Source of the DNA: an uncultured bacterium
GTDB taxonomy: Bacteria; Babelota; Babeliae; Babelales; Babelaceae
Reading direction: 5' to 3'
DNA: 64,000 bases
NCBI GenBank assembly: GCA_963848965.1
Contig: CAWKFG010000004.1
Span: forward strand, 384,001 to 448,000
Part shown: positions 3,783 to 64,000 of the stretch, one piece after another
How the letters are laid out: the number at the start of each line of letters is the position of its first letter
Position numbering within the stretch: the stretch's first letter is position 1
Notes under the pieces: generated by a model
The model's input: the letters and a program-made list of their open reading frames with translations, nothing else
Databases searched by the model: none
What the model was told of the DNA's origin: nothing
Made by a program: the position numbers and the translations under genes

Positions 3783-3891
3783 AGCTTATACCTTTCCTTT
3801 ACACAGTATTACAGGTGACTATCAAAAACAGCTTTAAAGCTATACAGCTCTGTATAAACCAGGATACTACTGTTATAAAAACAAGCAAGAG

Positions 3892-5619: not shown

Positions 5620-5646
5620 GAATTAACCTTTCAATGAGTAGTCTTC

Positions 5647-6798
5647 TTATTTAAGAAGAGCAAGTAATTGGTCTCTTCGTTTTAGTATGCTACTAAAGAA
5701 ATGAGCACTACAATAACGAGTATGGCTCTTTATTGCCTCTTCAAACATCCAATGTAAAGCTTTAAGAGAAAGCTTTTTGTATCGCTTTAAGCTTTCAGGT
5801 GAATGGATATGAACTTGAGAAATAGAGATACCCTTATGCACTCTACTTAGCACATCGCAGGAATTCCAGTCATATTGAACCCATAAGCTATTTTTCCACA
5901 TTACAACTGGCAAATGCGTTACATTGAGGGTATTCCAGTATAAAATATAATCGAGTGGAACAACATAGTGGGCTTCCTTATTAGTAAACTTTTTATAAGC
6001 ACATAGTTCATTAAGACATAATCCAACATTTTTACGATGTTGCTGCAATAAGACAGTACCATTCTTCTCATCTTGCCCAAGGGCAATAGGAAGAGAGATG
6101 TAAAAGACTTCATTAAACGGAAAAGGTTCATTATATAAATCATCATCACCGTATGCAATTTCCTGAATAAAAGGAGGTTCGCCACTACGCACTCGTGCTG
6201 GTACAATAAAAGCAGCATTATCAATAAGCGCTAAATATGCTTTTCCATCTTTATCAAGAGATACAAGTTGATTTCCTGGATGCGGATCCCATTGCCCAAA
6301 AATATAATAAAAAATTTGCCTATCACTCTTAGTCTGCTCTGATAGAAGGCTGAAAGCATGATCTCTTTCGCTATCTTTTAAAAGATCAAAAGGAGATTCT
6401 ACAAAGAACTGGAGACTTCCTCTCATTTTTTTATGCGTTTTAAGCACAGTGGGGGGAACAAGACGCAATCGAAGCCATTGACTTGCTCTATAAGCTGCTA
6501 CTTCCCCATAAGCTTTAAAAAGGCGTCCAGCTTCTGGCTTAAAAACTGCTTTTAAGCCATTTGCAAGTGTAGCAACATATACTTTAGTTTTATAAAAAAC
6601 GACTCTTCCTTTTTCTTTTAAATAATCTTTCATCTCTTTTAATTCAACAATAGGCTCTTTACGTAATTGTTCTTCAATACCAGCAAAATCAAGGTGATCA
6701 TCCCAGACTGGCTGCTTCGTATGTGTAACGCCTTTAATACCATAAGTGCAAAGAGTAAAAATCATTAACAAAAGGTAGAGAGATCTATAAAAACACAT
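5647..6798 (-). CDS. PI3/PI4-kinase-like atypical kinase, secreted, catalytic motifs intact
   Basis: AVFKP, GEVAAY, GSLQFFV, DPHPGN, LIDN; start moved to the ATG at 6798 behind a GAGGAAAG RBS (ORF track starts at 6837). Confidence 0.75.
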   Translation of the reverse strand: MCFYRSLYLLLMIFTLCTYGIKGVTHTKQPVWDDHLDFAGIEEQLRKEPIVELKEMKDYLKEKGRVVFYKTKVYVATLANGLKAVFKPEAGRLFKAYGEVAAYRASQWLRLRLVPPTVLKTHKKMRGSLQFFVESPFDLLKDSERDHAFSLLSEQTKSDRQIFYYIFGQWDPHPGNQLVSLDKDGKAYLALIDNAAFIVPARVRSGEPPFIQEIAYGDDDLYNEPFPFNEVFYISLPIALGQDEKNGTVLLQQHRKNVGLCLNELCAYKKFTNKEAHYVVPLDYILYWNTLNVTHLPVVMWKNSLWVQYDWNSCDVLSRVHKGISISQVHIHSPESLKRYKKLSLKALHWMFEEAIKSHTRYCSAHFFSSILKRRDQLLALLK

Positions 6799-40158: not shown

Positions 40159-41451
40159 TTAAGGCGCGCAGGAAGCGCAGGTTAAATAATTATAACTATA
40201 ACCATCACATGCATGAATAAGCTTACAATACTTGTAGCTTATACCTTGTATTGTAGAGCTATCAGTGACAATATTGAAAAAGCCATTAGCTCTTATTGCT
40301 ACCTTGCCTTTATAGATTCCCTTCTTTTTACCTTTAGTTACTACTGCTTGTATATGGTCTCCTGTCTGATAACCATAACACTTCTTTGCTCCTTTAGCAC
40401 TTGTGCGAGGAAAGCCATACTTATCTGGCCTACACATTTGTCTTGTACCATGGCCTGTAGCTTTAACAAGTAAGAGATTGATATCTTTAATAGAAAGGGT
40501 TAAAGGAGTACTAGCTCCAACACAAGCAGCATCGAGCCAATGAGTCTTTGGTAGATTGAGCTTTACTCTATTATACTTAGTCCTTCCTCCTGTCCCTGTC
40601 TCTACCGCTAATCCTAAAGAAAGTAGGTTTTGATACAATTGCCACCGTGTACTATTTACTGCCGCTGTGTCTCTTAGTGGTACTTGTGCTTGCTTTTGCA
40701 CATAAGGAAAGCCAAATTCTTGAGCTGTTTTATTACCTTTCCTTAGATTACAAAATCTACAGGCAAGAGTAAGATTAGAAACACGATTAGTTCCTCCTCT
40801 ACTTAAGGGTATAATATGCTCTATCTCTAGAGGTATACCTGAAGTATGACAATAAGCACATTGGCGGTTAAACTTTTCAAGTACATACTCACGTATTTCA
40901 TAACCAGCTAGCTCTCCCTGCTGGTATTGTATACCAGTAGTATCAGGATTTTGTATAAGCTGAGTATCAAAGCGTACTAACTCTTGGCTTATTGCTCCTA
41001 AAGGACAATAGCGAATAAGCTTTTTTACCCATGTTAGTATGTTAGCTATTCTGCTCTGTAAAGATGGGGCTAACCATCCTGCTTGCTTGCATCTATTATT
41101 AAAGCGAATCTCTCTATAGCGAGTATGCCTATTCCTTCTGCTCCGTCTTATTGTTCTTCTTGCTAAAAGCTGCTCATGAATATACTGACCTCTATGAGTA
41201 AGCTCTAAAGCAAAAATAACCATACCAGAGGTATCATTGATGATAACAATACCGGTGGTTTTGCTTCCTGGATCTATCTTAATGCGAAGAAGCTGAACAT
41301 CCATGCATGTTCTTTCTTCCTTAAGAATAATAACAAAAGGAAAGCGTCTAAAAATAGCAGCTTTACCGTGCTTAAGCAGTATTCTTGCTACAGCTGGATG
41401 ACAAGGGTTAAGAGGTTTTTTATTGTTATCAATAACGAATACGTATGACAT
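40159..41451 (-). CDS. iscB: RNA-guided endonuclease IscB
   Basis: PLNP (PLMP) N-terminus, RuvC-I IDPGSK, RRxRR bridge helix, RuvC-II ELVRFD, HNH EHIIP..RGG.N..SN, RuvC-III HWLDA; start MSYVFV at 41451 with AAAGGA RBS. Confidence 0.95.
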   Translation of the reverse strand: MSYVFVIDNNKKPLNPCHPAVARILLKHGKAAIFRRFPFVIILKEERTCMDVQLLRIKIDPGSKTTGIVIINDTSGMVIFALELTHRGQYIHEQLLARRTIRRSRRNRHTRYREIRFNNRCKQAGWLAPSLQSRIANILTWVKKLIRYCPLGAISQELVRFDTQLIQNPDTTGIQYQQGELAGYEIREYVLEKFNRQCAYCHTSGIPLEIEHIIPLSRGGTNRVSNLTLACRFCNLRKGNKTAQEFGFPYVQKQAQVPLRDTAAVNSTRWQLYQNLLSLGLAVETGTGGRTKYNRVKLNLPKTHWLDAACVGASTPLTLSIKDINLLLVKATGHGTRQMCRPDKYGFPRTSAKGAKKCYGYQTGDHIQAVVTKGKKKGIYKGKVAIRANGFFNIVTDSSTIQGISYKYCKLIHACDGYSYNYLTCASCAP

Positions 41452-41459
41452 AGTATCCT

Positions 41460-41707
41460 TTATAATAATCTCCCCTAACGGGGGTAAAGTTTGCCTCACT
41501 CATGTTATAAGGCGGTATATAGTAAGAGCACTGACTTATACCCTCAATCTGTTTAACCCTTACATTACAGAGCATGGAACTGGCAAGTATTCCATGGTGT
41601 GATCTTTAACTCTCCCTTATAACGTAGTCAAAAGCTGAGGCCTTTGACTTGAGCTGGTCAACGTGAGCTTTTACAAGCTACGCCCTTTAGAGAGCGTGGT
41701 AGTTGAC
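41460..41707 (-). ncRNA. omegaRNA (HEARO-like) scaffold
   Basis: GTCAAC...GTTGAC pairing, GACTACGTT, ACACCATGGAATACTTGCCAGTTCCATGCTCTG and ACATGAGTGAGG segments of the kind seen in IscB-associated RNAs; directly upstream of iscB. Confidence 0.8.
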
Positions 41708-50575: not shown

Positions 50576-50786
50576 TTCGAAAAAACGTGAGTAACTGAAT
50601 AGGGTGACCGTGATCTAAAGAGAAGGCCGCAGATAAAGCAAAGTCATCCTTATTATTCTAACCCAAGGCTGCAGGTATTACAAGATCTCGCGCAGCGCTC
50701 TATTGGGTTTTGCTTTTTTGGGGATTTTGCCTGTTCGCCATATGCCCCAAGAACATTCCTCTATTAATAAAGAGAGCACACTATGG

Positions 50787-51083
50787 TTAAAAGCACGAGA
50801 GTTTGATCCTCGCGATATTGGCCAACTTAACTTCTATATATCAGCAGTTGATGATTTAGTACGTAATTCAGAAGATAAACCAACTATAGGCTTACTCCTA
50901 TGTAAAACAAAACGAAACTTTACTGCTGAATATGCTCTACGAAACATAAACTCTCCTATTGGAATTGCTCAATATACTACTCTAACGGAAAAACTACCAA
51001 AAGAACTCAAAGGAAGTCTTTCAACAATTGAAGAAATTGAAGCTGAGCTTGAAAAGCAAGAGATTTTACTAGAAAAAGAATAG
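50787..51083 (+). pseudogene. 3' fragment of a DUF1016/YhcG PD-(D/E)XK gene
   Basis: LKAREFDPRDIGQLNFY...IGLLLCK; near-copy of 62813-63109; 5' part absent. Confidence 0.85.
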
Positions 51084-51228
51084 GACGAGCTTTAATATCT
51101 TAGTTAGAAACCAAGTAAATAAGCTAAAGATTTTATACTATAAGCTTGTGATATAAGTTTGTTCAAATCTTAACTTTGATATAATTATATGACTAATAAA
51201 ACTATCTGATCAAGGTTCTAAAGAAGAC

Positions 51229-51277
51229 TGGTGTCTCCTGCTATACATGTTTCGGAACCGTGAGCTACTCTTTGAGG
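51229..51277 (+). repeat. att-like repeat copy 1
   Basis: TGGTGTCTCCTGCTATACATGTTTCGGAACCG...TTTGAGG. Confidence 0.85.
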
Positions 51278-51376
51278 TCTATCTCACTAATATTCAAATC
51301 CCTGTAAATAACTGTCAGAGATGTTAAAGAGTCCCTAAACTAAAAATAGTAAAAGTAAGTATTTCATATAATCTTC

Positions 51377-51970
51377 TTAAATTTCTGCATGCTCAACCGA
51401 TTCAAATATAAAAATCTGGCGATCTGCATGCCAGGTAAAGGTGGAAATTGATTCATTGGTTAATGCCGGCAATTCAGCTACATCATACCCTAAATGAGTA
51501 AGTAATGAACCAAGCACGTACCCATGAGTCACCACAGCAACGTGCTGCCCTTCATGTTTTTGCGCGATTTTATTCAGATAGCTCATAACCCGTGCCACCA
51601 CCTGATCGCGCGGTTCAGCTTCAATTATTGCTGGCAAAGAGTCATAATGAAAAGGACCATACAGCGCGCGAAACTCTTTCAAAGTAAGTCCTTGGACTTT
51701 TCCAAAATGTCCTTCACGCAGATCAACGGTAAGAGTAATTTCTAATGAAAACAGTTCAGAAATCTCTTGCGCAGTTTGATGTGCTCTTTGCAAATCAGAT
51801 GAATAAAGCGCGCCAAGCGAAACTTGTTTTTTCTTGAGAAATTGTGCTACTTTTTGCGCCTGCGCTTTTCCGGTTGCATTAAGTGGAATATCTTCATGCC
51901 CTTGCATTTTACCAGCAAGATTCCAATCAGTTTGGCCATGGCGAATAAGCAATAATGTTGTTGAACTCAT
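51377..51970 (-). CDS. Histidine phosphatase family protein
   Basis: LIRHGQTDWN, SSDLQRA.QTA, LRE, VVTHG; start at MSST (ORF track starts at 52009). Confidence 0.92.
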   Translation of the reverse strand: MSSTTLLLIRHGQTDWNLAGKMQGHEDIPLNATGKAQAQKVAQFLKKKQVSLGALYSSDLQRAHQTAQEISELFSLEITLTVDLREGHFGKVQGLTLKEFRALYGPFHYDSLPAIIEAEPRDQVVARVMSYLNKIAQKHEGQHVAVVTHGYVLGSLLTHLGYDVAELPALTNESISTFTWHADRQIFIFESVEHAEI

Positions 51971-51989
51971 GGAAAATCCTAAGCAAACG

Positions 51990-52418
51990 TTAAGCCAACA
52001 TATAGTCAACGGAAAATTCTGGAAATACTTCCTTTATCTTTGAAAGCATTGCTAGTGTAGGATTACATTTGCCAGCTTCTAGCCTTTGATAACTCCATAT
52101 TTTGTCAAATCCCATACGCTTTGCCAATTCTTGTTGAGTAAGGTTATGAGACATTCTGAAATATCGTATAAGAAATGAAAAGGCTATATTTGGATCTACC
52201 GGAACTTCTACAACACTTTTTGATGTCTTTATAGAAGCATCAGGAAATGGCGCTAAGTCTTTAGAATTCTCTGGTTCTTCTATATAAAGGTTTAAAGCTT
52301 CCTTCATATTAGCATAAAGCTCTTCCAAGCTATCTGCTTGCGTAACACAACCTTCTAATTCCAAGCAATGTGCCCAAAAGCCTTTTCCTTCTTTATGAAT
52401 TTTGAAATGATACTTCAT
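51990..52418 (-). CDS. hicB: HicB antitoxin with C-terminal XRE HTH
   Basis: LEGCVTQADSLEE...EAL; LTQQELAKRMG..YQRLE. Confidence 0.88.
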   Translation of the reverse strand: MKYHFKIHKEGKGFWAHCLELEGCVTQADSLEELYANMKEALNLYIEEPENSKDLAPFPDASIKTSKSVVEVPVDPNIAFSFLIRYFRMSHNLTQQELAKRMGFDKIWSYQRLEAGKCNPTLAMLSKIKEVFPEFSVDYMLA

Positions 52419-52428
52419 GATTAGTTCC

Positions 52429-52613
52429 TTATTGAGCTGATTTTAATAATTTTCTAAGGTAATGTTCTGTTCCTTTTGCTAATTCTTTATGGTTCGGGAT
52501 AATGGCTTGTTTACAGCCCTTCTTTTTGAGCTTAATATGACTTCCTACTTGTCCCTCAATTCATAGCCAGCCTTTAAAAAAAGCTTAACCATATCCTTAC
52601 CACTAATTGGCAC
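52429..52613 (-). pseudogene. hicA: Frameshifted HicA toxin
   Basis: GGAGG RBS, GTG start MPISGKDMVKLFLKAGYEL, then a frame change to GQVGSHIKLKK...IIPNHKELAKGT. Confidence 0.8.
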
Positions 52614-53018
52614 AAGTCCTCCTTTAATTAATAGTATAATTCTACCAAGTTTAATTGGCATTTGTCAAGGAGTTTAAATATGATATGACAAACTATCCTA
52701 AGACAATATTCGTCTATCTGCCTTCACTCGTCTATTTGTAGAAAAAGCAACTTCACAAATTTATGATGCAATAGAAAGCAATCCAAGGTAGCATATATAA
52801 CAAAACGCCAACATCTTATTGCTTGGATCATAGACACTACTAGGATGCTAACACGGATGCACTAGGACGCCACAGTACATCCTAGTGAATTACCAGGCAA
52901 CAAACTAAAGATAAAATTTTCTATAGCAGTTAGAGCTATGCTATAAGTTTGTTCAAATCACGATTTTGGTATAAATTTATAACAAATATATCGATATATT
53001 AACGATTCTTGAGAATAT

Positions 53019-53065
53019 TGGTGTCCCTTGCTTACATGTTTCGGAACCGGGAACTTGAATATGAG
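53019..53065 (+). repeat. att-like repeat copy 2
   Basis: TGGTGTCCCTTGCT-TACATGTTTCGGAACCGGGAACTTGAATATGAG. Confidence 0.85.
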
Positions 53066-53151
53066 CCAAACATATACAGCAGCTTGGAATCATTCTACTC
53101 ATCGCTTAGCATTTAGACTAATAGTTGCTAACACTTAGAGGTTTATCTATC

Positions 53152-53279
53152 AACGCTTGCACTATATCAATAAGTTTTTTACTCTTGAGAAAGTTACTCA
53201 GCAGACTATACTAGGCTATATAAAACTTTTATGACCTAAACTATGGACTTATAATTTTATGGTAAAGATTAAAAAAGCA
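53152..53279 (+). pseudogene. 5' remnant (upstream region and first codons) of a DUF1016 gene
   Basis: ATGGTAAAGATTAAAAAAGCA at 53259 is identical to the start at 59691; upstream ACGCTTGCA.TATATC.ATAA.TTTTTTAC is also shared. Confidence 0.7.
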
Positions 53280-53391
53280 AAACCAAAATCCACGATCTCA
53301 CTTACGTTAGCTATGGGAATATAGCAAAGTCACCTTTCATAATGAAAAGCATATACTATCATAATTAATTTAACCCTATTGAGAAGCGATT

Positions 53392-53727
53392 ATGACTATT
53401 ACATACAAACAATTTGAGGATGTAGATATTAGAGTAGGTACTATCGTAAACGTTCAGGATTTTCCCGAAGCACGTAAGCCTGCCTATAAACTCTCTATCG
53501 ATTTTGGCAAATCCATTGGTATCAAAAGATCCTCTGCTCAAATAACACATCATTATACGAAAGAGCAACTGTTAGGGAAGCAAGTTTTAGCTGTCGTTAA
53601 TTTTCCTCCTCGCCAAATTGGTCCTTTTATGTCAGAAGTACTAACGCTGGGCTTACCTGACGAATCCGGTAATGTGGTACTTATTCAACCAACATTGACA
53701 ATTCCCAATGGAGGTAAACTTTTTTAA
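53392..53727 (+). CDS. csaA: CsaA / Trbp111-type tRNA-binding protein
   Basis: DIRVGTI, FPEARKPAYKL, SSAQIT, VVNFPPRQIG..MSEVL. Confidence 0.92.
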   Translation: MTITYKQFEDVDIRVGTIVNVQDFPEARKPAYKLSIDFGKSIGIKRSSAQITHHYTKEQLLGKQVLAVVNFPPRQIGPFMSEVLTLGLPDESGNVVLIQPTLTIPNGGKLF

Positions 53728-53776
53728 AAGCTAGAGATTATTAAAGCCCCTTATTCCTTATATAAGAAAAAATTTA

Positions 53777-54283
53777 TTACTGCGATACCGTCGTATCGAT
53801 TGACGTATGCTCTAAATTGGCGCCTTGAAGATTCAGATTGATTAAAAAATTTACTATGCCTCGATTAAAATCTTGAACCATACTAACTCTTCCTCCAGGT
53901 AAAGAATCTCCCAATAATTGTATCACAAGTGCGCGAATCTTTGGAAAGTAATTAAATTTATTTGTTAACCTCACTGTATCATCTATACCTTTAATATATA
54001 AGCTGACTGCTTGTTCATTAGCTTCTGGAAGTATATCTGCTGGTTGCCATTCTGAGCTTAAGTTGAATCTTGTTGAGTGCCCAGATTTTAATAATTGCGG
54101 TCGCTTGAATTCAGTCGAGATTATATAATCGTTAGGTGTTTTATTAGAAACCTGTACAACAATATCAGGATATGCTCCTCTTAATGCAGCTATTACCTCT
54201 TTATCTGGTTCAGGCTCCATTCCTTTAATAGATAAAGGTAGAATATTTAGTAAACCAAAAATACATAAAAAAATTTTATTCAT
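53777..54283 (-). CDS. Secreted hypothetical protein
   Basis: AAGGA RBS; signal peptide then GME. Confidence 0.7.
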   Translation of the reverse strand: MNKIFLCIFGLLNILPLSIKGMEPEPDKEVIAALRGAYPDIVVQVSNKTPNDYIISTEFKRPQLLKSGHSTRFNLSSEWQPADILPEANEQAVSLYIKGIDDTVRLTNKFNYFPKIRALVIQLLGDSLPGGRVSMVQDFNRGIVNFLINLNLQGANLEHTSIDTTVSQ

Positions 54284-54452
54284 ATTGCATCCTTTTTATA
54301 AGCCCTATTAACAAATAAATATATATAATAAATTACAGATTAGTCAATATTAAACTAAATTTAATTATAAACCGTTGTCAGCAAAAGTTCTTGTTTAATT
54401 AACCCATATTTGATATAATGGGAAATATAATTATAAACGAAAGGATCTTATT

Positions 54453-54722
54453 ATGAAATCCATTTACGTAAAGGTTGATGAACGCAATCGTATAGCTTTA
54501 ACTAAGGCTACTAAAACTCCTTACAAAATTTACAAAATTCGCATGGAAGGCGAAACTATAATTCTCGAGCCAGTTATAGAGGCGCCAAAAGAGCAACATT
54601 GGTTATTTAAACCTGAGAATAAACATCTTTTGGCCCAACTTGAAGAGGGCTTAAAGCAAGAAGCTACCATATCTCGTGGTTCGTTTGCACAATATGCGAC
54701 TGACAATGAAGAAGATGAATGA
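54453..54722 (+). CDS. AbrB/MazE-like antitoxin
   Basis: VKVDERNRI.L, G.IILEP, E.HWLF; overlaps the toxin gene. Confidence 0.7.
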   Translation: MKSIYVKVDERNRIALTKATKTPYKIYKIRMEGETIILEPVIEAPKEQHWLFKPENKHLLAQLEEGLKQEATISRGSFAQYATDNEEDE

Positions 54723-55008
54723 AATACGCTTTTCTCCTCGAGCTGATAAAAACATGCAAGATTTGGAAGATGATCCATCCAAGGAAAGAATACTCAAAGA
54801 TGTTAAAAAAGCTCTAGGATTTATGGAAACTAACTTAAGGCATCCTTCATTGCAAACTCATGAATTTGATGAAATGACAGGTCCTAATGGAGAAAAAGTC
54901 TTTGAAGCTTATGCTCAAAATAAGACACCGGGAGCATATAGGATATTCTGGTATTATGGACCGGGAAAAAACGTTATATCAATCATTGCAATTTTACCAC
55001 ATCCTTAA
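54715..55008 (+). CDS. RelE/ParE-like toxin
   Basis: RHPSLQTH, VFEAY, AYRIFWYYG, ILPHP; start at MNEI (ORF track starts at 54676). Confidence 0.72.
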   Translation: MNEIRFSPRADKNMQDLEDDPSKERILKDVKKALGFMETNLRHPSLQTHEFDEMTGPNGEKVFEAYAQNKTPGAYRIFWYYGPGKNVISIIAILPHP

Positions 55009-55134
55009 TAGGAATTAACAGTCATCAAGCCAAGAGATCAGAAAAGACCATTTATATACTAAAAGTGTCTTAATTAGAGCTTTTGATACATTTTACACCG
55101 AGTATATCGATCTAGAAATGGTTCTAAAGCAAGC

Positions 55135-55182
55135 TGGTGTCCCCTGCTGTACATGTTTCGGAACCGTAAACTTGAATGTGAG
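55135..55182 (+). repeat. att-like repeat copy 3
   Basis: TGGTGTCCCCTGCTGTACATGTTTCGGAACCGTAAACTTGAATGTGAG. Confidence 0.87.
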
Positions 55183-55222
55183 ATTTGTTTAGATGACATT
55201 AAAGTAATTTTTGTACAACCTA

Positions 55223-56377
55223 TTAAACCTTAATCTCTTTTAATATATTAAGTCCCCAGGCTGTACTCTTTTCACTTAATGGGAAATGAATATTGCCTGG
55301 GAAAATTACATACAAATGATCCAGTCTCAAATCTTCAAGTGCTATATGCATAGATTTTGTCATTTTAGGTGTATCACTGTACTTAAATTCAAAGCCTAAA
55401 CGCTTTCCACTTTTAAAGACAAATAGATCCAGCTCTGCTTTATTAGAAGTTGACCAAAAATAACAATCATCTGCTCTTATTTGCAAACAATTAATAACTT
55501 GCTCTAAAGCAAAACCTTCCCATAATGCCCCAATTTTAGGGTTTTTTGCTAACTCTGTAAGAGTATGAATAGAGGATAAGGTATTAAAAATACCACTATC
55601 TCTAAAATAGATTTTAGGCGTTTTTACTTGTCGCTTTTTTATATTTTCAAACCAAGGCTGCAAAACACGTATCATAAAAGTGCCTGCCAATATATCTAAG
55701 TATTTTTTTATTGTTTTATCTGACAACATTAAAGAATGTGCAATCTCATGAGCATTAAAGTACTGCCCATGATAAAAACAAAGCATCATCCAAAAGCGAT
55801 GCATTATTTTTGAGGGAACATCAAAACCAAAGTTTGGTAGGTCTTTCTCTAGAAAAGTGTTGATATATCCTTCTCGCCATAAAAAACTATCTTCCTCTGA
55901 TTGAGCTAAATAAGATCTCGGAAATCCGCCACGGATGAGTAACTTATCTGAATGATCAACTTCAAAAATGGTAAATGGAGGCAGCTCTATGTAGCCAATT
56001 CTTCCAGCTAATGTTTCTGATGATTGATGTATTAATTCTCTTGATGCGCTTCCCAAAATCAAAAATGAGTATTTTTTTTCTGGATCATCAACAAGTACTC
56101 GTAAAACTGGAAAAAGGTCTGGTCTACGTTGAATTTCATCTATAACAACAAGAAAGTTTTCATACTTGCTTAATGTAAGCATTGGATTTTCTAAGCTTGC
56201 TAAATGGATAGGATTTTCTAAGTCAAAAAACTCAACCTTACCAGTATATTGCTCAGAAAATTGACGCGCTAGTGTTGTTTTTCCTACTTGACGTGCTCCC
56301 AGAATTGCACATATTGGTTGTACCCTTAAATGTCTTTTAACTTGCTCTAAATATATTTTTCTTAGCATATTTTCCAT
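55223..56377 (-). CDS. AAA_14 ATPase with DUF4143 domain
   Basis: GARQVGKTT, IDEIQ, LGSAS, ETLAGR, KTPKIYFRDSG, ELDL, EFK. Confidence 0.9.
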   Translation of the reverse strand: MENMLRKIYLEQVKRHLRVQPICAILGARQVGKTTLARQFSEQYTGKVEFFDLENPIHLASLENPMLTLSKYENFLVVIDEIQRRPDLFPVLRVLVDDPEKKYSFLILGSASRELIHQSSETLAGRIGYIELPPFTIFEVDHSDKLLIRGGFPRSYLAQSEEDSFLWREGYINTFLEKDLPNFGFDVPSKIMHRFWMMLCFYHGQYFNAHEIAHSLMLSDKTIKKYLDILAGTFMIRVLQPWFENIKKRQVKTPKIYFRDSGIFNTLSSIHTLTELAKNPKIGALWEGFALEQVINCLQIRADDCYFWSTSNKAELDLFVFKSGKRLGFEFKYSDTPKMTKSMHIALEDLRLDHLYVIFPGNIHFPLSEKSTAWGLNILKEIKV

Positions 56378-56465
56378 GCAAATTCGGAACTATAGTCCAA
56401 TATTACATGGAACTATAGCAAAAGTCAAATGACTAGAATAATCTACCAGACATTCCAAGAAAGGC

Positions 56466-56513
56466 TGCTATCCTCTGCTTGGCATATTTCGGAACCGAGA
56501 GCTTTTGTTTGAG
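56466..56513 (+). repeat. att-like repeat copy 4 (degenerate)
   Basis: TGCTATCCTCTGCTTGGCATATTTCGGAACCGAGAGCTTTTGTTTGAG. Confidence 0.75.
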
Positions 56514-56557
56514 ATTGATTTTAAAGAGATACAAGCACTTCTTGCTTTACCTTTTCA

Positions 56558-57289
56558 TTAAAATACCATTGTACTTCTTTTATCTTTATTAAGCTTGCTA
56601 AGATATGGCCTTAAGAATCTAATAAATTTTTTTTCATTTGCTATACCTTCTTGAGTATATAAATTAAAGTGTGCCAATGAACGTTCATCTGAATCAATAA
56701 CCAAAAGAGTAACCGGCCTTTGAGGTAGATTTACTAAAGAAAATAGTACCCAGTGGTCACCTACGGTTACAACAAAGTATATTGCTTGTGGCTCTCTCTT
56801 AACCATGGCCATCAGGCGATTAAGTTCTTTATGTAATAAGTCATCCAAGTCTAAAGAAGTCTCTTTAGAATCAAGCAATGTGATTTCGTCCTTCTTTGCT
56901 GTCAAACATATGAGCTTATTTCCAATACCATTTTTATCTGCAAGTCTTTGTATGTGATAGTCCCAAAGGCCCTTATCCTTTCCATACTGAGTATATAGTT
57001 TCTTAAGTGCTTTCTGGTTTCGTAAACCAATTTTTAACACTTCTTTAAAATTACGTGGAGTTTTAAGAGCCTTTTCTATTGCAAGTGCATGAAAAACAGC
57101 CCGCAATCCACAAGACCATTCATCAGCCTGAGCTAGATAATTGCGTATTTGAATTACATTATGCCTAGTAAATTGTTTAGTAACAGTTATTACAAGCGGC
57201 TTACTGAGGGAAATAATATAACTTAACGGCTTGGCCGCTATTTCTGCTATAACTATTAAAAGAGATAAAATAACTATTACACTATTCAT
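56558..57289 (-). CDS. Putative papain-fold cysteine protease (paralog 3)
   Basis: QADEWSCGLR...DHWVLF...LVIDS. Confidence 0.58.
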   Translation of the reverse strand: MNSVIVILSLLIVIAEIAAKPLSYIISLSKPLVITVTKQFTRHNVIQIRNYLAQADEWSCGLRAVFHALAIEKALKTPRNFKEVLKIGLRNQKALKKLYTQYGKDKGLWDYHIQRLADKNGIGNKLICLTAKKDEITLLDSKETSLDLDDLLHKELNRLMAMVKREPQAIYFVVTVGDHWVLFSLVNLPQRPVTLLVIDSDERSLAHFNLYTQEGIANEKKFIRFLRPYLSKLNKDKRSTMVF

Positions 57290-58016
57290 AATTATACCTT
57301 TGCCTTTAATAAATCACGCTTGCTTTGGCTCTTTGGTACTTTAAGAAAGCCTATAAACTGACAAAAAAATGGGTTTATTTACAAGATTTTAAGCTCTATT
57401 TCAAAAAAGGTTGGAATCTTTTGCGCTTGCTCAACTGCTAGAGCATGCAAGATGACATAGAGGTCACAAAACTAATTATCGTCTTGTGCTAACCTATAGC
57501 ATATGCGTTCAACATATTTTCTTCGTAATTTATTAAATAGGATAATAACAAAAGTATTAGCAAACTCAAACGCTTGGCTTATTCTTAAATTTTAATTAAA
57601 ATAATCGATAAATTTAGCAAAAGCACTATTGAAAACATAGAGGGATAAACTTGCTTCTTAATTGGAGCTAACGGTTCTATTAACAACAATAATTTGGATG
57701 ATATAGAAGAGCATGCTTAAATTTTACGATTAACCCCGAAAAGAATAGTGGCTCCATAGGTTGGGTATTCTTTATCCCCATAAAAGTAAAACGATAAAAT
57801 CTTTCAATGGTGATGCTTGATGGACGAAAAACACCAATAGAAGACTCTAAATTAAGGAAGTCAAATAGCCATCCTTGAGATGGCAACGCCCATCAACCAC
57901 TGCATCTTGCAGCGCACGTTGATTTAGATTTTTATTTGCAAATAAAATTGACATCTATTTTAATATTAGTTACTATAAGTAAGGAATTTAATGTTTTTAT
58001 AATGTAAGGTCTAACT

Positions 58017-59438
58017 ATGAAGATGTATGCGAAATTTCTCGTAACTGTATGCAGCCTAATGGCTTTCAGTATAATTGCTATGGAGAAAACTGCCGATCAA
58101 AAGAGCAATTACCGCGGACTAGCCATATCAATGACTGATGAGGTGCTACTAAGTAAGAGTAAAAGCACCGATCGTGAATTTATCAACCTTATCCAAAATG
58201 CATATCCTGAGATGAATTACTTGACCTCACCAGCGCATGCAAGCCCTGAAGGTCAGGCTAGTGCTCATGAATCTTCTCCTTCAAAGCTTCTATTTGGGAA
58301 GCAACATATAGAGTATGATCGTACTATTGTTGGTATTCTTGCTTTAAAATGGGTACTTGTAGACGATTATGATCACTTTGTTGAAGGGCAGCCGGAACAT
58401 ATTAAATTAAAAAGAGAAAGCTTTAACGAGCTGCGCACCTTAACGCTCAAGGTCATTAAAAATGGTATGCTCAACGCTTTAGTAACCTCGCTGGTCATCA
58501 ACGATTTAGGTAAAATAATCTCTTTTGTTAAAGAGGTTGAAGGACGAACGGGAATGAGTGAAGTTGACCATGATAACATTTTATTTACGGCCTTATTAAA
58601 GTATCCAGAACTTATTCCTAGCTTTACTCATTTAACAAGTGACCAACAAAAAACGATTCTTAAAAGTCTTGGCGCCCAGTTTAATTTAGGTCAGTTTGTT
58701 CGAGCAGAGAATCTTCCTGCAAGTTTAAAGGGCTTACAAGGGCTTAGCCAAGAAGAGCTCGATTTTAACAATATCCATGTATTATACGACCTTGCTGGCG
58801 CACGAGGTCACATTTCAAGTCAAGGTTCATTATTATTAACTGAACCTGTTTATCAATCCTTTATTACTGCTTTTAAGGTGTTTAATGAGATTGCACCTAT
58901 AACATGTAACCAAGATTTAACGCATATATACAATGCTTATCTAGCTTTACGAGCACGATCTTTAAATAGTAAGGATTCACTTGCGATACCAGAAAGCCGA
59001 GCTTTAGTCCGTATTGCATGTATGGTAGGCTCTAGTAATGATGCTGAGTTTACTAAAGTAAAAGATGCTTTTAATAAGTTATCCTATAAAGAACAAAAGA
59101 TACTTATTGATGAGCTTAATAAGACAGGTATTAATGATGTAGGTATTTTGCTCTATTATGCGCCAGCTATTCTTACTAATGCACGATCTACATCTCCCCA
59201 AGATTCGGAGTATAGCCTCCAAGTTGGGCTAAGATACTTAGCCAAAGTCTTTAAATTAGCACGAGCTTCCATTGCCGATGGACAGCAAGGCAGAGTGTAT
59301 ACGGTAGATTGTGCAGCTTTGGCCCAGGCAATAAAGGTCCCTCAAGAACTTGGATACTGTACCCTTGAGCTTAAGCCTGTAAATAATGATGCTCAAGTGG
59401 TAGTGCATGCTAAGCTATTAGGCGCTCCCTATAATTAA
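58017..59438 (+). CDS. Secreted hypothetical protein, HD-like (possibly DUF6829-like)
   Basis: Signal peptide then AME; EYDRT, INDLGK, DHD, NLGQ..RAE, DLAGA.GH. Confidence 0.6.
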   Translation: MKMYAKFLVTVCSLMAFSIIAMEKTADQKSNYRGLAISMTDEVLLSKSKSTDREFINLIQNAYPEMNYLTSPAHASPEGQASAHESSPSKLLFGKQHIEYDRTIVGILALKWVLVDDYDHFVEGQPEHIKLKRESFNELRTLTLKVIKNGMLNALVTSLVINDLGKIISFVKEVEGRTGMSEVDHDNILFTALLKYPELIPSFTHLTSDQQKTILKSLGAQFNLGQFVRAENLPASLKGLQGLSQEELDFNNIHVLYDLAGARGHISSQGSLLLTEPVYQSFITAFKVFNEIAPITCNQDLTHIYNAYLALRARSLNSKDSLAIPESRALVRIACMVGSSNDAEFTKVKDAFNKLSYKEQKILIDELNKTGINDVGILLYYAPAILTNARSTSPQDSEYSLQVGLRYLAKVFKLARASIADGQQGRVYTVDCAALAQAIKVPQELGYCTLELKPVNNDAQVVVHAKLLGAPYN

Positions 59439-59494
59439 GCCTTATCCTTTGGTCTTATTTCTATCTAAAGCTTGAGCCCTTAGCAAAAGCCCTA

Positions 59495-59520
59495 TCAGAA
59501 CCGAGAACTTGAATTTGAGG
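59495..59520 (+). repeat. att-like repeat copy 5 (3' half only)
   Basis: TCAGAACCGAGAACTTGAATTTGAGG. Confidence 0.65.
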
Positions 59521-60010
59521 TTACCCTTCATAACGATCTTGAAGCTTTCCTAACCCTTATTCAGGCTAGAATGGTAAATACTTAACGCTATATCCGAACT
59601 CCTGATACGTACGCTTGCAATATATCTATAATTTTTTTACGCTTAAATAAACATCTGACAGACTTTTATTAGGCTAATAAAGCTATTCCTATGGTAAAGA
59701 TTAAAAAAGCACAATTATCAAGTAATAAAGATTTAGGTTCCTTGCTTAATGAGGATTACTTTCAGACCTTGGAGGATCTCAAACAAAAGATCAGGCAAGC
59801 TCAACTGAGAGCATCCCTGTCCGTGAACTTAGAACTTATTAAGCTTTACTAGGAAATCGGCCACACTATTGTCCAAAAGCAAGAAAGCAACGGTTGGGGT
59901 GCCAAGATCATCGATAGTTTTGCTAAGGATTTGCAGGCAGCTTTCCCCGGAATTGAAGGATTTTCCTGCACTAATATCTTCTATATGAGAGCCTTTTATC
60001 TATCTTGTGA

Positions 60011-60037
60011 AATTGTCCAACAGCTTGTTGGACAATT
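60011..60037. repeat. 27-bp palindrome, copy 4, inside the DUF1016 coding region
   Basis: AATTGTCCAACAG-C-TTGTTGGACAATT, encoding IVQQLVGQ. Confidence 0.85.
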
Positions 60038-60455
60038 GTCAGATTTACCGTTCTTTAAGATTCCATGGGGCCACAATGTAACGCTAATCAGCAAGCTCAA
60101 ACATAACGATCAGCGTATATGGTATGCTAAAAAAGCAATAGAAGATGGGTGGAGCAGGCAGGCACTTGAACGAATGATTAAATCTGATCTCTATAGCAGA
60201 CAAGGTAAAGCTATTACTAACTTTAATGAAAAGCTTCCTAATCCTCAATCTCATCTTGCCAACGATATATTAAAATCACCTTATAATTTTGACTTTCTTA
60301 CCTTAACATCTGAATATGATGAACGAGAGCTTGAGCAAGGGCTAGTAGATCATATACAAAAGTTCCTTATAGAATTAGGCAAAGGCTTTGCTTTTGTAGG
60401 AAGGCAATATCATATAGAAGTTGAAGGCAGAGATTATTATATAGATTTGCTCTTT

Positions 60456-62776
60456 GTGCGATCCGCAAGTCTTGCGCTTTCGATGCAAGATGAACTACTG
60501 ACACCGTGGTGGCTCAATTCCACCTCCCTTGATATCGGGGTAACAGTATGACCCACACATTAAGAACTGGTAAATCTTACTGTGCAAGCATGGGGCAAAA
60601 AGGGAGTAACTCTGAACTCAACAGAGAAATCCTCTCAAACAGAGTTAGACATGGTTACGCGAGAAACCTGTGTCTGAACCGTCGTAAGGTCGTGATGTGC
60701 GAATGAGTTGATACGCACAAACCAAAAGGTAATGAGGTGCAAGAGGAGTCAGGAATGAATAGGCCTGATTAAGATATTCTCGAGCCTCCGGCGGAAAGCA
60801 GGAACCTACATCTAACGCGAAACGGTATTCAGTGGAACGGAGTAACCATTATAACGCTCTTAAAAAAAAAATAAGCAGGTACCAGCCGCATGCGCTATAA
60901 TGGAGGGATTATCTCAGAAGCAAATGCCTAGAATAACAGCTAGGATAGGCTAACAGAGATACAGTAACTTAGAAGGTAAAGTTATGAGTAGCGGTACAAA
61001 CGTCATGAACCAATCAAAGATTAGGTATGAATGGAAAGACATACCATGGCAAAAAAAGCTAGAGGTATCAGTCTTCAAGCTGCAAAAGCGAATTTACCGA
61101 GCCTCACAACGTAATGATACCGTTATGGTGCATAGGCTACAAAGACTGTTGATCAAATCAACAAGCGGAAAACTACTTGCGGTCAGAAGAGTAGTGCAAG
61201 AAAACCTGGGCAGAAAGACTGCTGGGATAGACGGTATTGCAAACATCACACCAAGGGAACGTCTACGTCTAGCCGAAACGCTAACTCTCGACACTGATAG
61301 TAAACCAGTCAGGCGCGTTTGGATACCAAAACCGGGGAAAACAGAAAGGCGGCCTCTGGGGATACCTACAATCACAGATAGAGCGAAACAGGCACTTCTA
61401 AAACTGGCTCTAGAGCCTGAATGGGAGGCCAAGTTCGAGCCAAACAGCTATGGGTTCAGGCCTGGACGGTCATGCCATGACGCTTATGGAGCAATCTTCG
61501 AAGCTCTCAAAAGAAAAACTGCATACGTACTTGATGCAGATATATCTGGATGCTTTGATAACATTGACCACAACGAATTATTGAGAAAGCTAAACACGAC
61601 GCCAACGACGCAACGAATAGTGAAAGGATGGCTAAAGGCTGGAGTAATGGAAGGGAGTGTGTTTCAAACAACTGAGCGAGGAACACCCCAAGGGGGAGTG
61701 ATATCTCCATTACTAGCGAACATAGCTCTCCACGGAATGGAAGACGACACGAAGAAAGCCCTTGCCAACGAGCTCTTCCAATATGCAAAAGGAAAACGAG
61801 GCAAAACGGCCCATCTTCATGCACAAAAGACCATCAGCATAATTCGATACGCCGATGACTTCGTAATAACTCATGAAAGCAAAGACATTGTACTAAAGGC
61901 TAGCTCCTATATTGAAGGATGGCTCAACAATATTGGCCTACAACTAAAGCAATCAAAAACTAGAATGACTCATACTCTGAATTGGAGCGAAGATCAGAAG
62001 CCTGGCTTTAACTTCCTAGGCTTCACAGTCAGACAGTTCTCGGTCAAACAAAGCAAGAAAGGCTACAAACTATTAATCAAGCCAAGTCGAGAATCAATGA
62101 AACGACACGCAAAAGCGATCAAAGAAATGCTTCGGTCCGTAAGAGCGGCACCACAAGAAACCGTTATCAGTAAGCTGAATCCCATTGTGAAAGGGTGGAG
62201 CAGATACTTCGCAGTTGGCGTATCACGCAAAGCATTCGAACGGTTAGACCATGATATGCATCACAAGCTTTGGCGATGGGCAAAGTATAGACATCCGCAA
62301 AAGGGAAAGGGATGGATCATACGAAAGTACTTCCGCAAGTATGGCAATGACGTATGGAGATTCATGACTCATGAGCAAATGTTTCTTGCTCGCCATAGCG
62401 ACCAACTGATAAGGCGACACGTGAAGGTGAAAGGAACCAAATCACCCTACGATGGAGATATGGTATACTGGGCTACACGGCTGGGTAGATCGCTAGAGCT
62501 ACCAGTAGCGATAACAAAACTACTGAAAACGCAGAAAGGCAAATGCAAAGTATGCAGGTTCTGGTTCAAAACAGAAGACTTGATGGTAGTTCACAAAAAC
62601 ACAGGTAAAAGCAACAAGAGAGAAGATGTCAAACTTATTCACCAAAGCTGTCATTAATAAAAAAAATGAGGTATATGTATCAAAATACTAAGCTACTGAG
62701 GAGCCGTATGAATCGAAAGATTCACGTACGGTTCTGGAGTCGAGCAGAGAAAGTCGCCTTTCTCTGCTTAGATAAC
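60456..62776 (+). mobile_element. Group II intron (probably IIB / chloroplast-like class)
   Basis: 5' GTGCG; domain V GAGCCGTATGAATCGAAAGATTCACGTACGGTTC at 62701-62734; domain VI hairpin ending AAC; removal restores the host frame. Confidence 0.93.
60984..62657 (+). CDS. ltrA: Group II intron reverse transcriptase/maturase
   Basis: RPLGIPT..DR, SYGFRPGRS, GTPQGGVISPLL.NI, RYADDF, FLGF, LNPIVKGW..YF; degenerate C-terminal CKVC...HQSCH. Confidence 0.95.
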   Translation: MSSGTNVMNQSKIRYEWKDIPWQKKLEVSVFKLQKRIYRASQRNDTVMVHRLQRLLIKSTSGKLLAVRRVVQENLGRKTAGIDGIANITPRERLRLAETLTLDTDSKPVRRVWIPKPGKTERRPLGIPTITDRAKQALLKLALEPEWEAKFEPNSYGFRPGRSCHDAYGAIFEALKRKTAYVLDADISGCFDNIDHNELLRKLNTTPTTQRIVKGWLKAGVMEGSVFQTTERGTPQGGVISPLLANIALHGMEDDTKKALANELFQYAKGKRGKTAHLHAQKTISIIRYADDFVITHESKDIVLKASSYIEGWLNNIGLQLKQSKTRMTHTLNWSEDQKPGFNFLGFTVRQFSVKQSKKGYKLLIKPSRESMKRHAKAIKEMLRSVRAAPQETVISKLNPIVKGWSRYFAVGVSRKAFERLDHDMHHKLWRWAKYRHPQKGKGWIIRKYFRKYGNDVWRFMTHEQMFLARHSDQLIRRHVKVKGTKSPYDGDMVYWATRLGRSLELPVAITKLLKTQKGKCKVCRFWFKTEDLMVVHKNTGKSNKREDVKLIHQSCH

Positions 62777-63259
62777 TATCACACAAAGCTTAAATGCTAT
62801 ATAGTTGTAGAATTAAAGGCACGAGAATTTGACCCTCGCGATATTGGCCAACTTAACTTCTATATATCAGCAGTTGATGATTTAGTACGTGATTCAGAGG
62901 ATAAACCAACCATAGGTTTGCTTCTGTGTAAGACAAAAAGAAACTTTACTGCTGAATATGCTCTACGAAATATAAGCTCGCCTATCGGGATTGCTCAATA
63001 TACTACTCTAACAGAAAAACTACCAAAAGAACTTAAAGGAAGTCTTCCAACAATTGAAGAAATTGAGGCCGAGCTTGAAAGGCAGGAAATTTTACTAGAA
63101 AAAGAATAGAGTGAACTTTAATACTTTAGTTAGAAGTCAAGTAAATACGCTGAAGATAAGATCCTCTAAGGTAAGTTTTTAATATAAGCCCGTTCCAATC
63201 TTAATTTTGATATAGCACCATGTCAAATACATTCATCTAATCAAAATTCTAAAGAAGAC

Positions 63260-63308
63260 TGGTGTCCCCTGCTATACATGTTTCGGAACCCTAAGCTCTT
63301 GTTTGAGG
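63260..63308 (+). repeat. att-like repeat copy 6
   Basis: TGGTGTCCCCTGCTATACATGTTTCGGAACCCTAAGCTCTTGTTTGAGG. Confidence 0.87.
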
Positions 63309-63546
63309 TTGACCTTAAAGAAATTCCGGTGATTTTAAACCTGCTAGAAAAGTAATTTTGATATAATAAGAACTTAGTCTTTTAAGCAAACAGTCCCTAA
63401 AAAGTATGCTACAAACTACAAAATCGTACACAAAAGCTATTTATCGCTTATCGTATAGAACCTTGAACAAATTAATTAAACACAGTATTATAAGTGATAC
63501 GATAATCTGGGAATTGGATTCCCAGATTGCAAGCAAGGAGTTTTAT

Positions 63547-64000
63547 ATGATTAATAGAGAACTAAACCACTCTTTGGTTAAAGCAGCAAATGAATTTCCT
63601 GTAGTTGCTGTATTGGGCCCACGGCAATCTGGCAAAACAACTTTGGTTCAAACAACTTTCACCGATCATAGGTATGTCTCCTTAGAAGATTTTGACTTGC
63701 GGAACCTAGCAAATCGAGATCCTCGAAGATTTTTACAAGATTACCCTAGTCAAAGCGGCATTATTCTAGATGAAGTACAACATGCTCCCCAGCTTCTTTC
63801 TTATATTCAAACCACAGTCGACCGTGAAAAAAGAAAAGGATATTTTATTCTCACTGGCTCTCAGAATTTGCTAATGAATGAGGCGATAACACAAAGCCTT
63901 GCTGGTAGAATTGCACTTTTAGACCTTTTTCCGCTATCCATAAGTGAACTTGAGCATGCTTCATTACTACCCCAAAAAATAGAAGAGGTTGTTTTTAAAG
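63547..64000 (+). CDS. AAA_14/DUF4143-type ATPase, 5' part (runs off the window)
   Basis: Manual translation MINRELNHSLVKAANEFPVVAVLGPRQSGKTT...ILDEVQ...LTGSQ...QSLAGR; AAGGAG RBS. Confidence 0.88.
   Translation, partial: MINRELNHSLVKAANEFPVVAVLGPRQSGKTTLVQTTFTDHRYVSLEDFDLRNLANRDPRRFLQDYPSQSGIILDEVQHAPQLLSYIQTTVDREKRKGYFILTGSQNLLMNEAITQSLAGRIALLDLFPLSISELEHASLLPQKIEEVVFK

Follow-up and report, generated by a model that had tools for sequence, protein, structure and literature searches.

The nearest analogues of the system described here are two kinds of tyrosine integrase, that of Mx8 and the SSV type. The attB of Mx8 lies in a tRNA-Asp gene. Its attP is situated inside the integrase gene and, according to the accessible portion of PMC6070905 (the system is also named in PMC4383910), the conversion of IntP into IntX upon integration provides a new 3′ end and altered specificity without destroying the enzyme. 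In SSV-type archaeal integrases the site likewise lies within the integrase open reading frame (ORF), and the available sections of PMC7253208 and PMC8371274 describe that integration splits this gene in two. Here, we analyzed a stretch of 64,000 nucleotides from an uncultured bacterium (the window; G000:C4:384001-448000, unprefixed positions counting from its first letter), whose right part carries a series of repeats that each begin a conserved coding tail. We consider it highly probable that these repeats are the junction (att) sites of elements that insert at tRNA 3′ ends and are moved by large serine recombinases (LSRs) whose genes span their own attP. As in Mx8, the crossover would fall inside the recombinase ORF and integration would change the protein end. 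The Mx8 enzyme is a tyrosine recombinase, whereas the enzymes of this family are LSRs, what they exchange is a short conserved tail of ~30-40 residues, and the junction lies exactly on the tRNA CCA, which is read as a tryptophan (W) codon. The SSV integrases are archaeal tyrosine recombinases whose gene is disrupted, whereas in the present family the exchange is limited to the extreme C-terminus.

The phage-type serine integrases (A118/LI, SPbeta SprA, phiC31, Bxb1) possess the same domain set as the LSRs of this family, and their outer motif, which lies closer to the centre in attB than in attP, is offset much as it appears to be between the tRNA side and the tail side here (4-6 nt, aligned by eye). 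To our knowledge, the known phage-type serine integrases have attP outside the int gene. Tandem attP-like junctions such as those described below are not the products of the canonical attP × attB reaction. The staphylococcal cassette chromosome (SCC) islands at rlmH/orfX comprise tandem cargo units, some of them recombinase-less, together with CcrAB serine recombinases and direct repeats that contain the 3′ end of the target gene. Like the array studied here, they present tandem units between direct repeats carrying a coding end, but the SCC target is a protein gene that itself supplies the repeated end, whereas here the target is a tRNA gene and the repeated end stems from the recombinase. 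In the integration-dependent immunity of mycobacteriophages, the segment removed from the repressor reportedly is a degradation tag. The accessible text of PMC3694055 places attP of this tyrosine-integrase system in the 3′ end of the repressor gene and describes that the C-terminal loss changes behaviour; the gene concerned is thus a repressor, whereas the C-terminal exchange found here affects the LSR itself. Serine-family integrases were not known to target tRNA genes in 2014, as stated in the available part of the Islander paper (PMC4383910), which names Mx8 and SSV as integrases extending across attP. Our own literature search, which had subscription journals and bioRxiv supplements outside its scope, found no description of a serine recombinase that targets tRNA genes or has attP inside its own gene.

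Six repeat copies had been reported in a sequence-only reading of the window. Inspection located all of them at the given positions, on the + strand, and an nhmmer profile built from the six recovered the same copies (E 1e-27 to 8.5e-18). The profile also detected four further same-strand pieces just past the window end (E 2.5e-19 to 3.7e-6), giving a total of ten same-strand sites from C4:435197 to C4:453618, one of which is split by an IS110-family element. The array extends 5.6 kb beyond the window, as far as the 3′ end of a tRNA-Arg(TCT) gene in antisense orientation (four outer sites and anchoring tRNA, G000:C4:448793-455955). Neighboring sites are spaced by 1.3-3.8 kb. Every junction is attP-like, being composed of an LSR 3′ stub, the core and the tail, while the final one is attR-like (stub, core and tRNA); the stub lengths fall into two classes. 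Mean pairwise identity exceeded the AT-rich background (~0.3) over the interval -30 to +69, counted from the TGG codon, and reached a maximum of 0.82-0.86. The conserved part thus comprises ~100 nt per copy, twice the length of a 40-50 bp LSR site, which is consistent with both flanks of the site stemming from coding DNA: the tail on the right and, in c1, c2 and c6, the last LSR codons ..FDI...SKEDW on the left.

The individual junctions of the window, all on the + strand, differ in their state of preservation. Junction c1 (51149..51327) shows a degenerate LSR 3′ stub, ..SNLNFDI..GSKEDW, followed from its W codon at 51229 by the tail WCLLLYMFRNRELLFEVYLTNIQIPVNNCQRC and a stop. In c2 (52939..53116; TGG at 53019), the stub resembles those of c1 and c6, and a 1-nt deletion after CCCTTGCT shifts the tail, which reads YMFRNRELEYEP... 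in the frame anchored 3′ of the deletion. Junction c3 (55103..55233; TGG at 55135) has the short stub GSKASW and the tail WCPLLYMFRNRKLECEICLDDIKVIFVQPIKP, whereas c4 (56434..56561) carries TGC at 56466 in place of TGG, ahead of the tail CYPLLGIFRNRELLFEIDFKEIQALLALPFH. The most degenerate copy, c5 (59455..59585; W-equivalent codon at ~59472), contains an in-frame TAG ahead of the tail QKPYQNRELEFEVTLHNDLEAFLTLIQARMVNT. Finally, c6 (63158..63355) possesses a stub of ~100 nt, TGG at 63260 and the tail WCPLLYMFRNPKLLFEVDLKEIPVILNLLEK. The stubs of c1, c2 and c6 contain stops and resemble pseudogenised LSR 3′ ends. Beyond the window, TAC replaces TGG in c7, and the IS110-family element lies inside c8. 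The translations proposed for copies 3, 4, 5 and 6 were confirmed, as was the deletion in copy 2, which appears as an alignment gap; copy 1 ends in ...IQIPVNNCQRC* and not, as originally proposed, in ...IQIPVK*. The tails had also been described as start-less, and indeed no copy contains a start codon, nor does any upstream ORF enter a copy. The missing start codons and the stop-to-stop frames of 33-55 codons rule out independent small peptide genes.

All three copies of the IS110-family element in this genome (99.7-100% identical) occupy an identical position within tail-type att sites (G000:C4:450986-452144, corresponding to L021 about 4986-6144; G000:C1:386018-387196; C1:396668-397838). The insertion point, ...CCCCTRCTT / IS / (T/G)AC..TTCRGGAAC, splits the right half-site. 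Judging from these three insertions, the element looks like a site-specific invader of LSR att sites, which it would disable.

A search of 1.84 billion proteins with a profile of nine tail frames (E ≤ 1e-3) gave 7 matches, five of them tail-like (P0001, P0002, P0004, P0005 and P0007); P0003 and P0006 are internally repetitive and were not counted as relatives. In P0005 the tail directly follows ...FDWIKPFDAIALHASRKAW, a join that can also be written ...LQNLELDGKKAQFDWIKPFDAIALHASRKAW. Residues 56-108 of P0005 align to c1 (tblastn, E 1.2e-4), residues 56-75 corresponding to the left arm of this junction. Searched against longer proteins, P0005 returned 53 matches among 253 candidates, most of which contain Resolvase, Recombinase and Zn_ribbon_recom domains. 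We retrieved 17 of the 53 for a comparison of their C-termini. The ending ...AWLPG was found in 3/17, and ...SWLRR of P0028 was read as the same class; about 7/17 show tRNA-antisense read-through ends such as ...AWLPRLDSNQGHPP, two (P0008 and P0009) end in the tail form ...WLPL.DLF.N.K(L/I)EF..., and P0014, P0016, P0040 and P0042 (4/17) have unrelated endings. In P0005, P0008, P0009 and the six LSR ORFs presented below, the tail follows a conserved ...PFD..(S/D)RQAW end. The same tail after the W position occurs in six full-length LSRs, in P0009 and in three fragments.

For a view of the family in its genomic context, we considered 306 related loci in species-representative genomes, 80 of which were kept for all locus counts. 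They belong to metagenome-assembled genomes of Dependentiae/Babeliales, Patescibacteria and Gammaproteobacteria. In 52/80 loci, the LSR 3′ end directly adjoins a tRNA gene in antisense orientation (Glu-ttc 14, Asn-gtt 12, Asp-gtc 10, Gln-ttg 6, Arg-tct 5, Arg-cct 2, Arg-tcg 2, Glu-ctc 1), and in 49 of those 52 the tRNA CCA is the in-frame W codon (TGG) according to a coordinate-based count. The remaining 28/80 include contig ends, uncalled tRNAs still translating ...DSNL... and other tails. Relatives integrated at Arg(TCT) also end in WCAR*. The LSR body remains an intact ORF in 52/80 integrated copies. When the tail profile was run on six-frame ORFs, it detected a copy in 34/80 loci, in all but two cases on the LSR strand. 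These LSR-strand copies lie upstream of the LSR, the position expected for attL, except in L042, where the tail is that LSR's own C-terminus.

Six tail copies form the ends of LSR-homologous ORFs of 534-597 codons, which share 23-53% identity with the genome's own LSR. In L074, L075, L082 and L099 the tail-bearing ORF encodes an additional LSR, located upstream of the matched LSR and in the same orientation; in L042 it is the matched LSR itself, and in L048 it lies downstream on the other strand. From their gene order we read L074, L075, L082 and L099 as putative tandem elements, in which the tail of the upstream LSR would be supplied across the junction. Since the six tails end LSR ORFs, the tail is a real protein end that is exchanged by recombination. 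These proteins and the tRNA-abutting loci bear out the earlier proposal that the tails are C-termini of an LSR with attP inside its own 3′ end, and provide the protein family with this C-terminal motif that the proposal called for. Also as proposed, the C-terminus is exchanged in the family: the conserved W is followed by tRNA-antisense codons, by the conserved tail or by the tail of a neighboring element. In the window itself, no body is present with which a tail could fuse. A nearby recombinase ORF running into the tail frame, as envisaged in the sequence-only reading, does not exist, and tblastn revealed no LSR body anywhere in the array.

A recombinase encoded in or beside the element, a feature of LSR elements that the array lacks, was found for the 80 related loci and for an element on contig C1 of the same genome. 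The latter encodes the genome's only LSR, a protein of 486 aa with Resolvase, Recombinase and zinc-ribbon domains, the Zn ribbon of the family containing an inserted coiled coil. It ends in ...PFDAIINCNDRQAW-RAR*, i.e. ...RQAW followed by antisense tRNA-Arg(TCG), with TGG representing the CCA end of that tRNA. Three same-strand tail copies are located upstream of this LSR, and tRNA-Asp(GTC) and tRNA-Glu(TTC) of this genome have one or two tail copies at a distance of 2-5 kb. Further small arrays comprise two units at tRNA-Glu(TTC) (G000:C4:518891-524043), one at tRNA-Asp(GTC) (C4:216868-219999) and, at tRNA-Arg(TCG), the LSR element followed by its three tail copies (C1:377048-397838). In addition, positions 3850-4150 of the 9.5-kb contig G000:C3 are near-identical to the att region C1:392500-392800, with few indels; this copy could stem from a variant strain or from a repeat that collapsed during assembly.

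The anchor of the array suggests how the site is built. To the left of antisense tRNA-Arg(TCT), the DNA reads ...GATTCTAAACGAAGC|TGGTGTGCCCGG..., matching the left arm and core of the repeat, ...GGTTCTAAAGAAGAC|TGGTGTCCCCTG.... The TGG of the core is the antisense of the tRNA's CCA, and the array end reads ...SKRSWCAR* into the tRNA gene. The repeat has only TGGTGT.CCC (~10 nt) in common with tRNA-Arg(TCT) and differs from it elsewhere. By eye, GGTTCTAAAG to the left and TTTCGGAACC to the right of the core form an imperfect inverted pair, whose midpoint would fall in TGGTGTC|CCCTG. A T-loop-like motif has its first base at +22/23 in the tails and at +18/19 in tRNAs; aligned by eye, the T-loop-like TTCGGAACC of the tails lies 4-6 nt farther from TGG than TTCGAACC of the tRNA. 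The accessible portion of PMC11722253 reports that the outer motif of LSR attB half-sites lies 5 bp (4 bp in SPbeta) nearer the centre than in attP. The shift between tail and tRNA, as far as the by-eye alignment goes, would match this rule for attP and attB half-sites. The first ten or so codons of the tail may thus serve as an attP-type right half-site that imitates the acceptor and T-arm of the tRNA.

An additional element of 45-55 nt, ...CTGGCCGTGCCAGGCGTAGCTCC-NNNN-GGAGCGAAGAC, was observed near tRNA genes. It occurs in 17 copies genome-wide, with 8 matches in relatives. Ten copies directly adjoin tRNA 3′ ends (Ser, Ala, Leu, two Lys, Arg-cct, Met, Asp, Glu), six are next to a tail copy if the C1 copy and its duplicate on C3 are counted as two, and one lies near the tmRNA gene; examples are C1:325360-325412 and, on the contig of the array, G000:C4:219868-219924, C4:523920-523968 and C4:216868-216921. 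It could either represent the native flank of tRNA genes, as the left arm of attB, or belong to LSR-less units as their left arm.

We thus propose the following model for the system. The elements would insert at the extreme 3′ end of a tRNA gene in antisense orientation. The recombinase gene would span attP, with the last codons of the body as the left half-site, the conserved W codon (TGG) as the antisense of CCA and the next ~10 codons (CPLLYMFRN) as the right half-site; a further ~20 codons (RELEFEVDLKDI...) would complete the conserved tail. Integration would strand the tail at the element's opposite end, and the body would read into the antisense tRNA and stop within a few codons. The window contains six of the ten junctions of a tandem array anchored on tRNA-Arg(TCT), whose tails, given that the array contains no recombinase body, are orphaned and would remain untranslated. 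The array presumably grew by serial LSR-mediated insertion beside the tRNA, with the crossover probably occurring within the shared TGGTGT.CCC core. The tail may modulate the recombinase, and by analogy with Mx8 a role in its activity or directionality is a reasonable hypothesis.

The codon-like substitutions that had been pointed out among the copies were only weakly borne out within the window. The ratio of nonsynonymous to synonymous polymorphism (pN/pS) was lowest in the tail frame (0.60); the other + frames gave 0.92 and 0.96, and those of the reverse strand 0.73-0.98. Column entropy per codon position was 0.96/0.76/1.03, with a permutation p of 0.14, and frame +1, with 4/9 copies stop-free over 27 codons, comes close to the tail frame with 5/9. 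Across genomes, the peptide (W)(L/C)PL..(M/L)F.N.(E/K)(L/I)EF...L..(I/L)K..F is kept in LSRs whose bodies have diverged to 23% identity, and variation in the tail set is wobble-like (TTY, CGN/AGR, AAY). A Pfam scan of the nine tail peptides gave no consistent family, only three unrelated families with one member each (E 0.03-0.09), and a word-indexed search of longer proteins, for which the tail alignment served as query, returned 0/8000 scored candidates at E ≤ 1.

Several observations weigh against the proposed interpretation. Inside the window, the signal of protein-level selection is weak. The cross-genome tails were partly gathered by means of a peptide profile, so that their wobble-like variation is partly circular and no independent proof. 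An AlphaFold2 model, computed from a 29-row alignment for the tail-bearing LSR at L048:12155-13720 (minus strand), reached a mean predicted local distance difference test (pLDDT) score of 81.6; its tail (residues 487-522), with a pLDDT of 56-67, forms two short helices without confident packing or docking, and the model therefore provides no functional clue. With six LSR queries, tblastn detected neither an LSR body nor a remnant beyond ~20-45 codons in the array, and an LSR with the matching ...SKEDW end was not found in the assembly (88.7% complete). A search for relatives of the repeat DNA in 60 related genomes gave one 18-nt match only (E 0.0099). Finally, in the available part of PMC3783163, canonical LSRs recombine attP × attB only, not attP with attR or attL. 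Serial insertion beside the tRNA is thus unexplained by textbook rules, and so is the build-up of attP-like junctions, regardless of whether the array arose by decay of complete elements or by recombination in trans, the two histories considered in the following.

According to the first, which in our view falls just short of being probable, the array is a graveyard: full LSR elements of 5-11 kb accreted in tandem at tRNA-Arg(TCT) and later lost the recombinase and most other genes through deletion, so that the junctions are functionless, decaying scars. In favour of this history, tandem full elements are found in relatives (L074, L075, L082, L099), and the stubs of c1, c2 and c6 have the look of pseudogenised LSR ends. 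Also consistent with decay are the lesions of several sites (c2, c4, c5, c7, c8), the IS110 element and the group II intron that have settled in the array, and its left end, which is a truncated duplicate. On the other hand, ten independent losses of a whole 1.4-kb body, each sparing the ~30-nt left half-site, are unlikely. No intermediate body remnants were seen by tblastn, and the half-sites are the best conserved part of the repeats (identity 0.72-0.86).

The second, a possible but rather doubtful explanation, regards the array as a working cassette platform and thus as a serine-recombinase counterpart of the integron, in which small LSR-less circles with one attP-like site each (stub, core and tail) would be inserted and excised in trans by an LSR encoded elsewhere. 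Insertion would always take place beside the tRNA and regenerate the same two site types. This would account for the preservation of both half-sites (about -30 to +31) at each of the ten junctions, none of which has a recombinase, and for stub lengths that form two classes instead of a random spread. The units are all of small size (1.3-3.8 kb) and differ in their cargo, which is rich in toxin-antitoxin genes, YhcG-type and DUF4143-type cargo occurs twice each, and other LSR-less units exist at tRNA-Asp and tRNA-Glu. Recombination of [X-tail] × [X-tRNA] would return the same site types and could thereby sustain unlimited growth; yet this is precisely the pairing forbidden by the textbook rules for LSRs. 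The damaged sites, the missing cognate LSR in the assembly and the lack of shared repeat DNA among the 60 related genomes likewise speak against a working platform. No public sequencing runs holding window positions 54900-63400 were listed. We regard it as unlikely that the tRNA-Arg(TCT) array is live in the more specific sense that a foreign LSR stacks beside the tRNA gene, and shuffles, small recombinase-less circles that each bear one attP-like site derived from the 3′ end of the recombinase gene, while the tail acts as a state sensor that leaves the enzyme full-length only when the element is excised or a neighbor supplies the tail.

It is very improbable that the repeats are tRNA-fragment direct repeats of tyrosine-integrase islands or integron attC sites with a coincidentally open frame: anchoring at a tRNA 3′ end, a repeat start (TGGTGT.CCC) that resembles the tRNA end, and cassette-like cargo are compatible with such an origin, but only ~10 nt match the tRNA, the two Phage_integrase (PF00589) genes of the genome both lie on contig C1 and are Xer-like by size only (308-312 codons), the consensus fold of 8 copies (RNAalifold) amounts to -3.3 kcal/mol with 5 pairs, no covariation term and no conserved hairpin, Rfam has no match at the repeats, and the tail is fused to LSR proteins in other genomes. 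As separate candidates, an integron was rejected given that contig C4 has no PF00589 match, the ORFs flanking the array are unrelated and no attC-like hairpin was found, and a tyrosine-integrase tRNA island was rejected for lack of a tRNA-identical repeat over tens of nt. Structured RNA was dismissed as well, with Rfam at gathering thresholds finding only HEARO and a group II intron elsewhere and RNAalifold predicting 5 pairs, as were tRNA/tmRNA pseudogenes, of which ARAGORN found none in the window.

The preferred reading, junction sites of tRNA-end-inserting LSR elements, joins LSR chemistry, a tRNA target and a detachable conserved tail in one family. Free and integrated elements would encode the same enzyme with or without a C-terminal module, and such a two-form enzyme makes the question of LSR directionality testable without a separate directionality factor. 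LSRs are widely used in genome engineering; attB sites of ~40 bp in universally conserved tRNA ends are of practical interest in this field. LSR-less arrays of toxin-antitoxin and nuclease genes at tRNA ends would represent overlooked variable islands in small-genome, host-associated bacteria. The window contributes a ten-junction array that is entirely devoid of a recombinase, together with an IS110 element that, in this genome, is confined to tail-type att sites.

Between the junctions, LSR-less cargo units of 1.3-3.8 kb carry toxin-antitoxin, ATPase, nuclease and ankyrin genes. The left array edge is marked by a truncated 3′ fragment of a YhcG/DUF1016 nuclease gene (50703..51083, +). Positions 50787-51086 and 62813-63112, both covering the YhcG 3′ end, form a 300-nt direct repeat with 91% identity, so that the right end of the c5-c6 unit is present a second time as c1 with the DNA to its left. 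This 300-nt repeat and the att site next to it bracket 12 kb of the array, which could be deleted by homologous recombination. Unit 1 (51377..52418, -) encodes a histidine phosphatase (51377-52009) and a HicB-like/helix-turn-helix (HTH) antitoxin (51990-52418). Unit 2 (53392..55008) comprises a tRNA_bind-domain protein (53392-53727, +), a 168-aa ORF without Pfam family (53777-54283, -) and two small overlapping + ORFs, also without Pfam family (54453-54722 and 54676-55008), which by eye resemble a toxin-antitoxin pair. An ATPase with AAA_14 and DUF4143 domains constitutes unit 3 (55223..56377, -). Unit 4 (56558..59438) consists of a 243-aa ORF without Pfam family (56558-57289, -) and a DUF6829 protein (58017-59438, +).

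In unit 5 (59931..63109, +), a YhcG/DUF1016 PDDEXK nuclease gene is interrupted by a group II intron (~60480-62776, +) with a reverse transcriptase/maturase ORF (60984-62657) and the Rfam Intron_gpII domains V-VI (62698-62776). The intron sits between ...YYIDLLF and YHTKLKC... of YhcG, the exon boundaries having been set by eye. Unit 6 starts with a second, different AAA_14 and DUF4143 ATPase (63406..64000, +), which continues beyond the window (L021 1406-2734). Other cargo of the array includes AbiEii/AbiEi, an ankyrin protein, Fic with an HTH partner and a DUF2608 protein.

Outside the array, a HEARO RNA (Rfam RF02033, 134.7 bits) was found at 41484-41707 on the - strand, directly upstream of a 446-codon ORF on the same strand (40159-41499). 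We take this layout of HEARO followed by an ORF (40159-41707) to be the one expected for an IscB-type RNA-guided nuclease.

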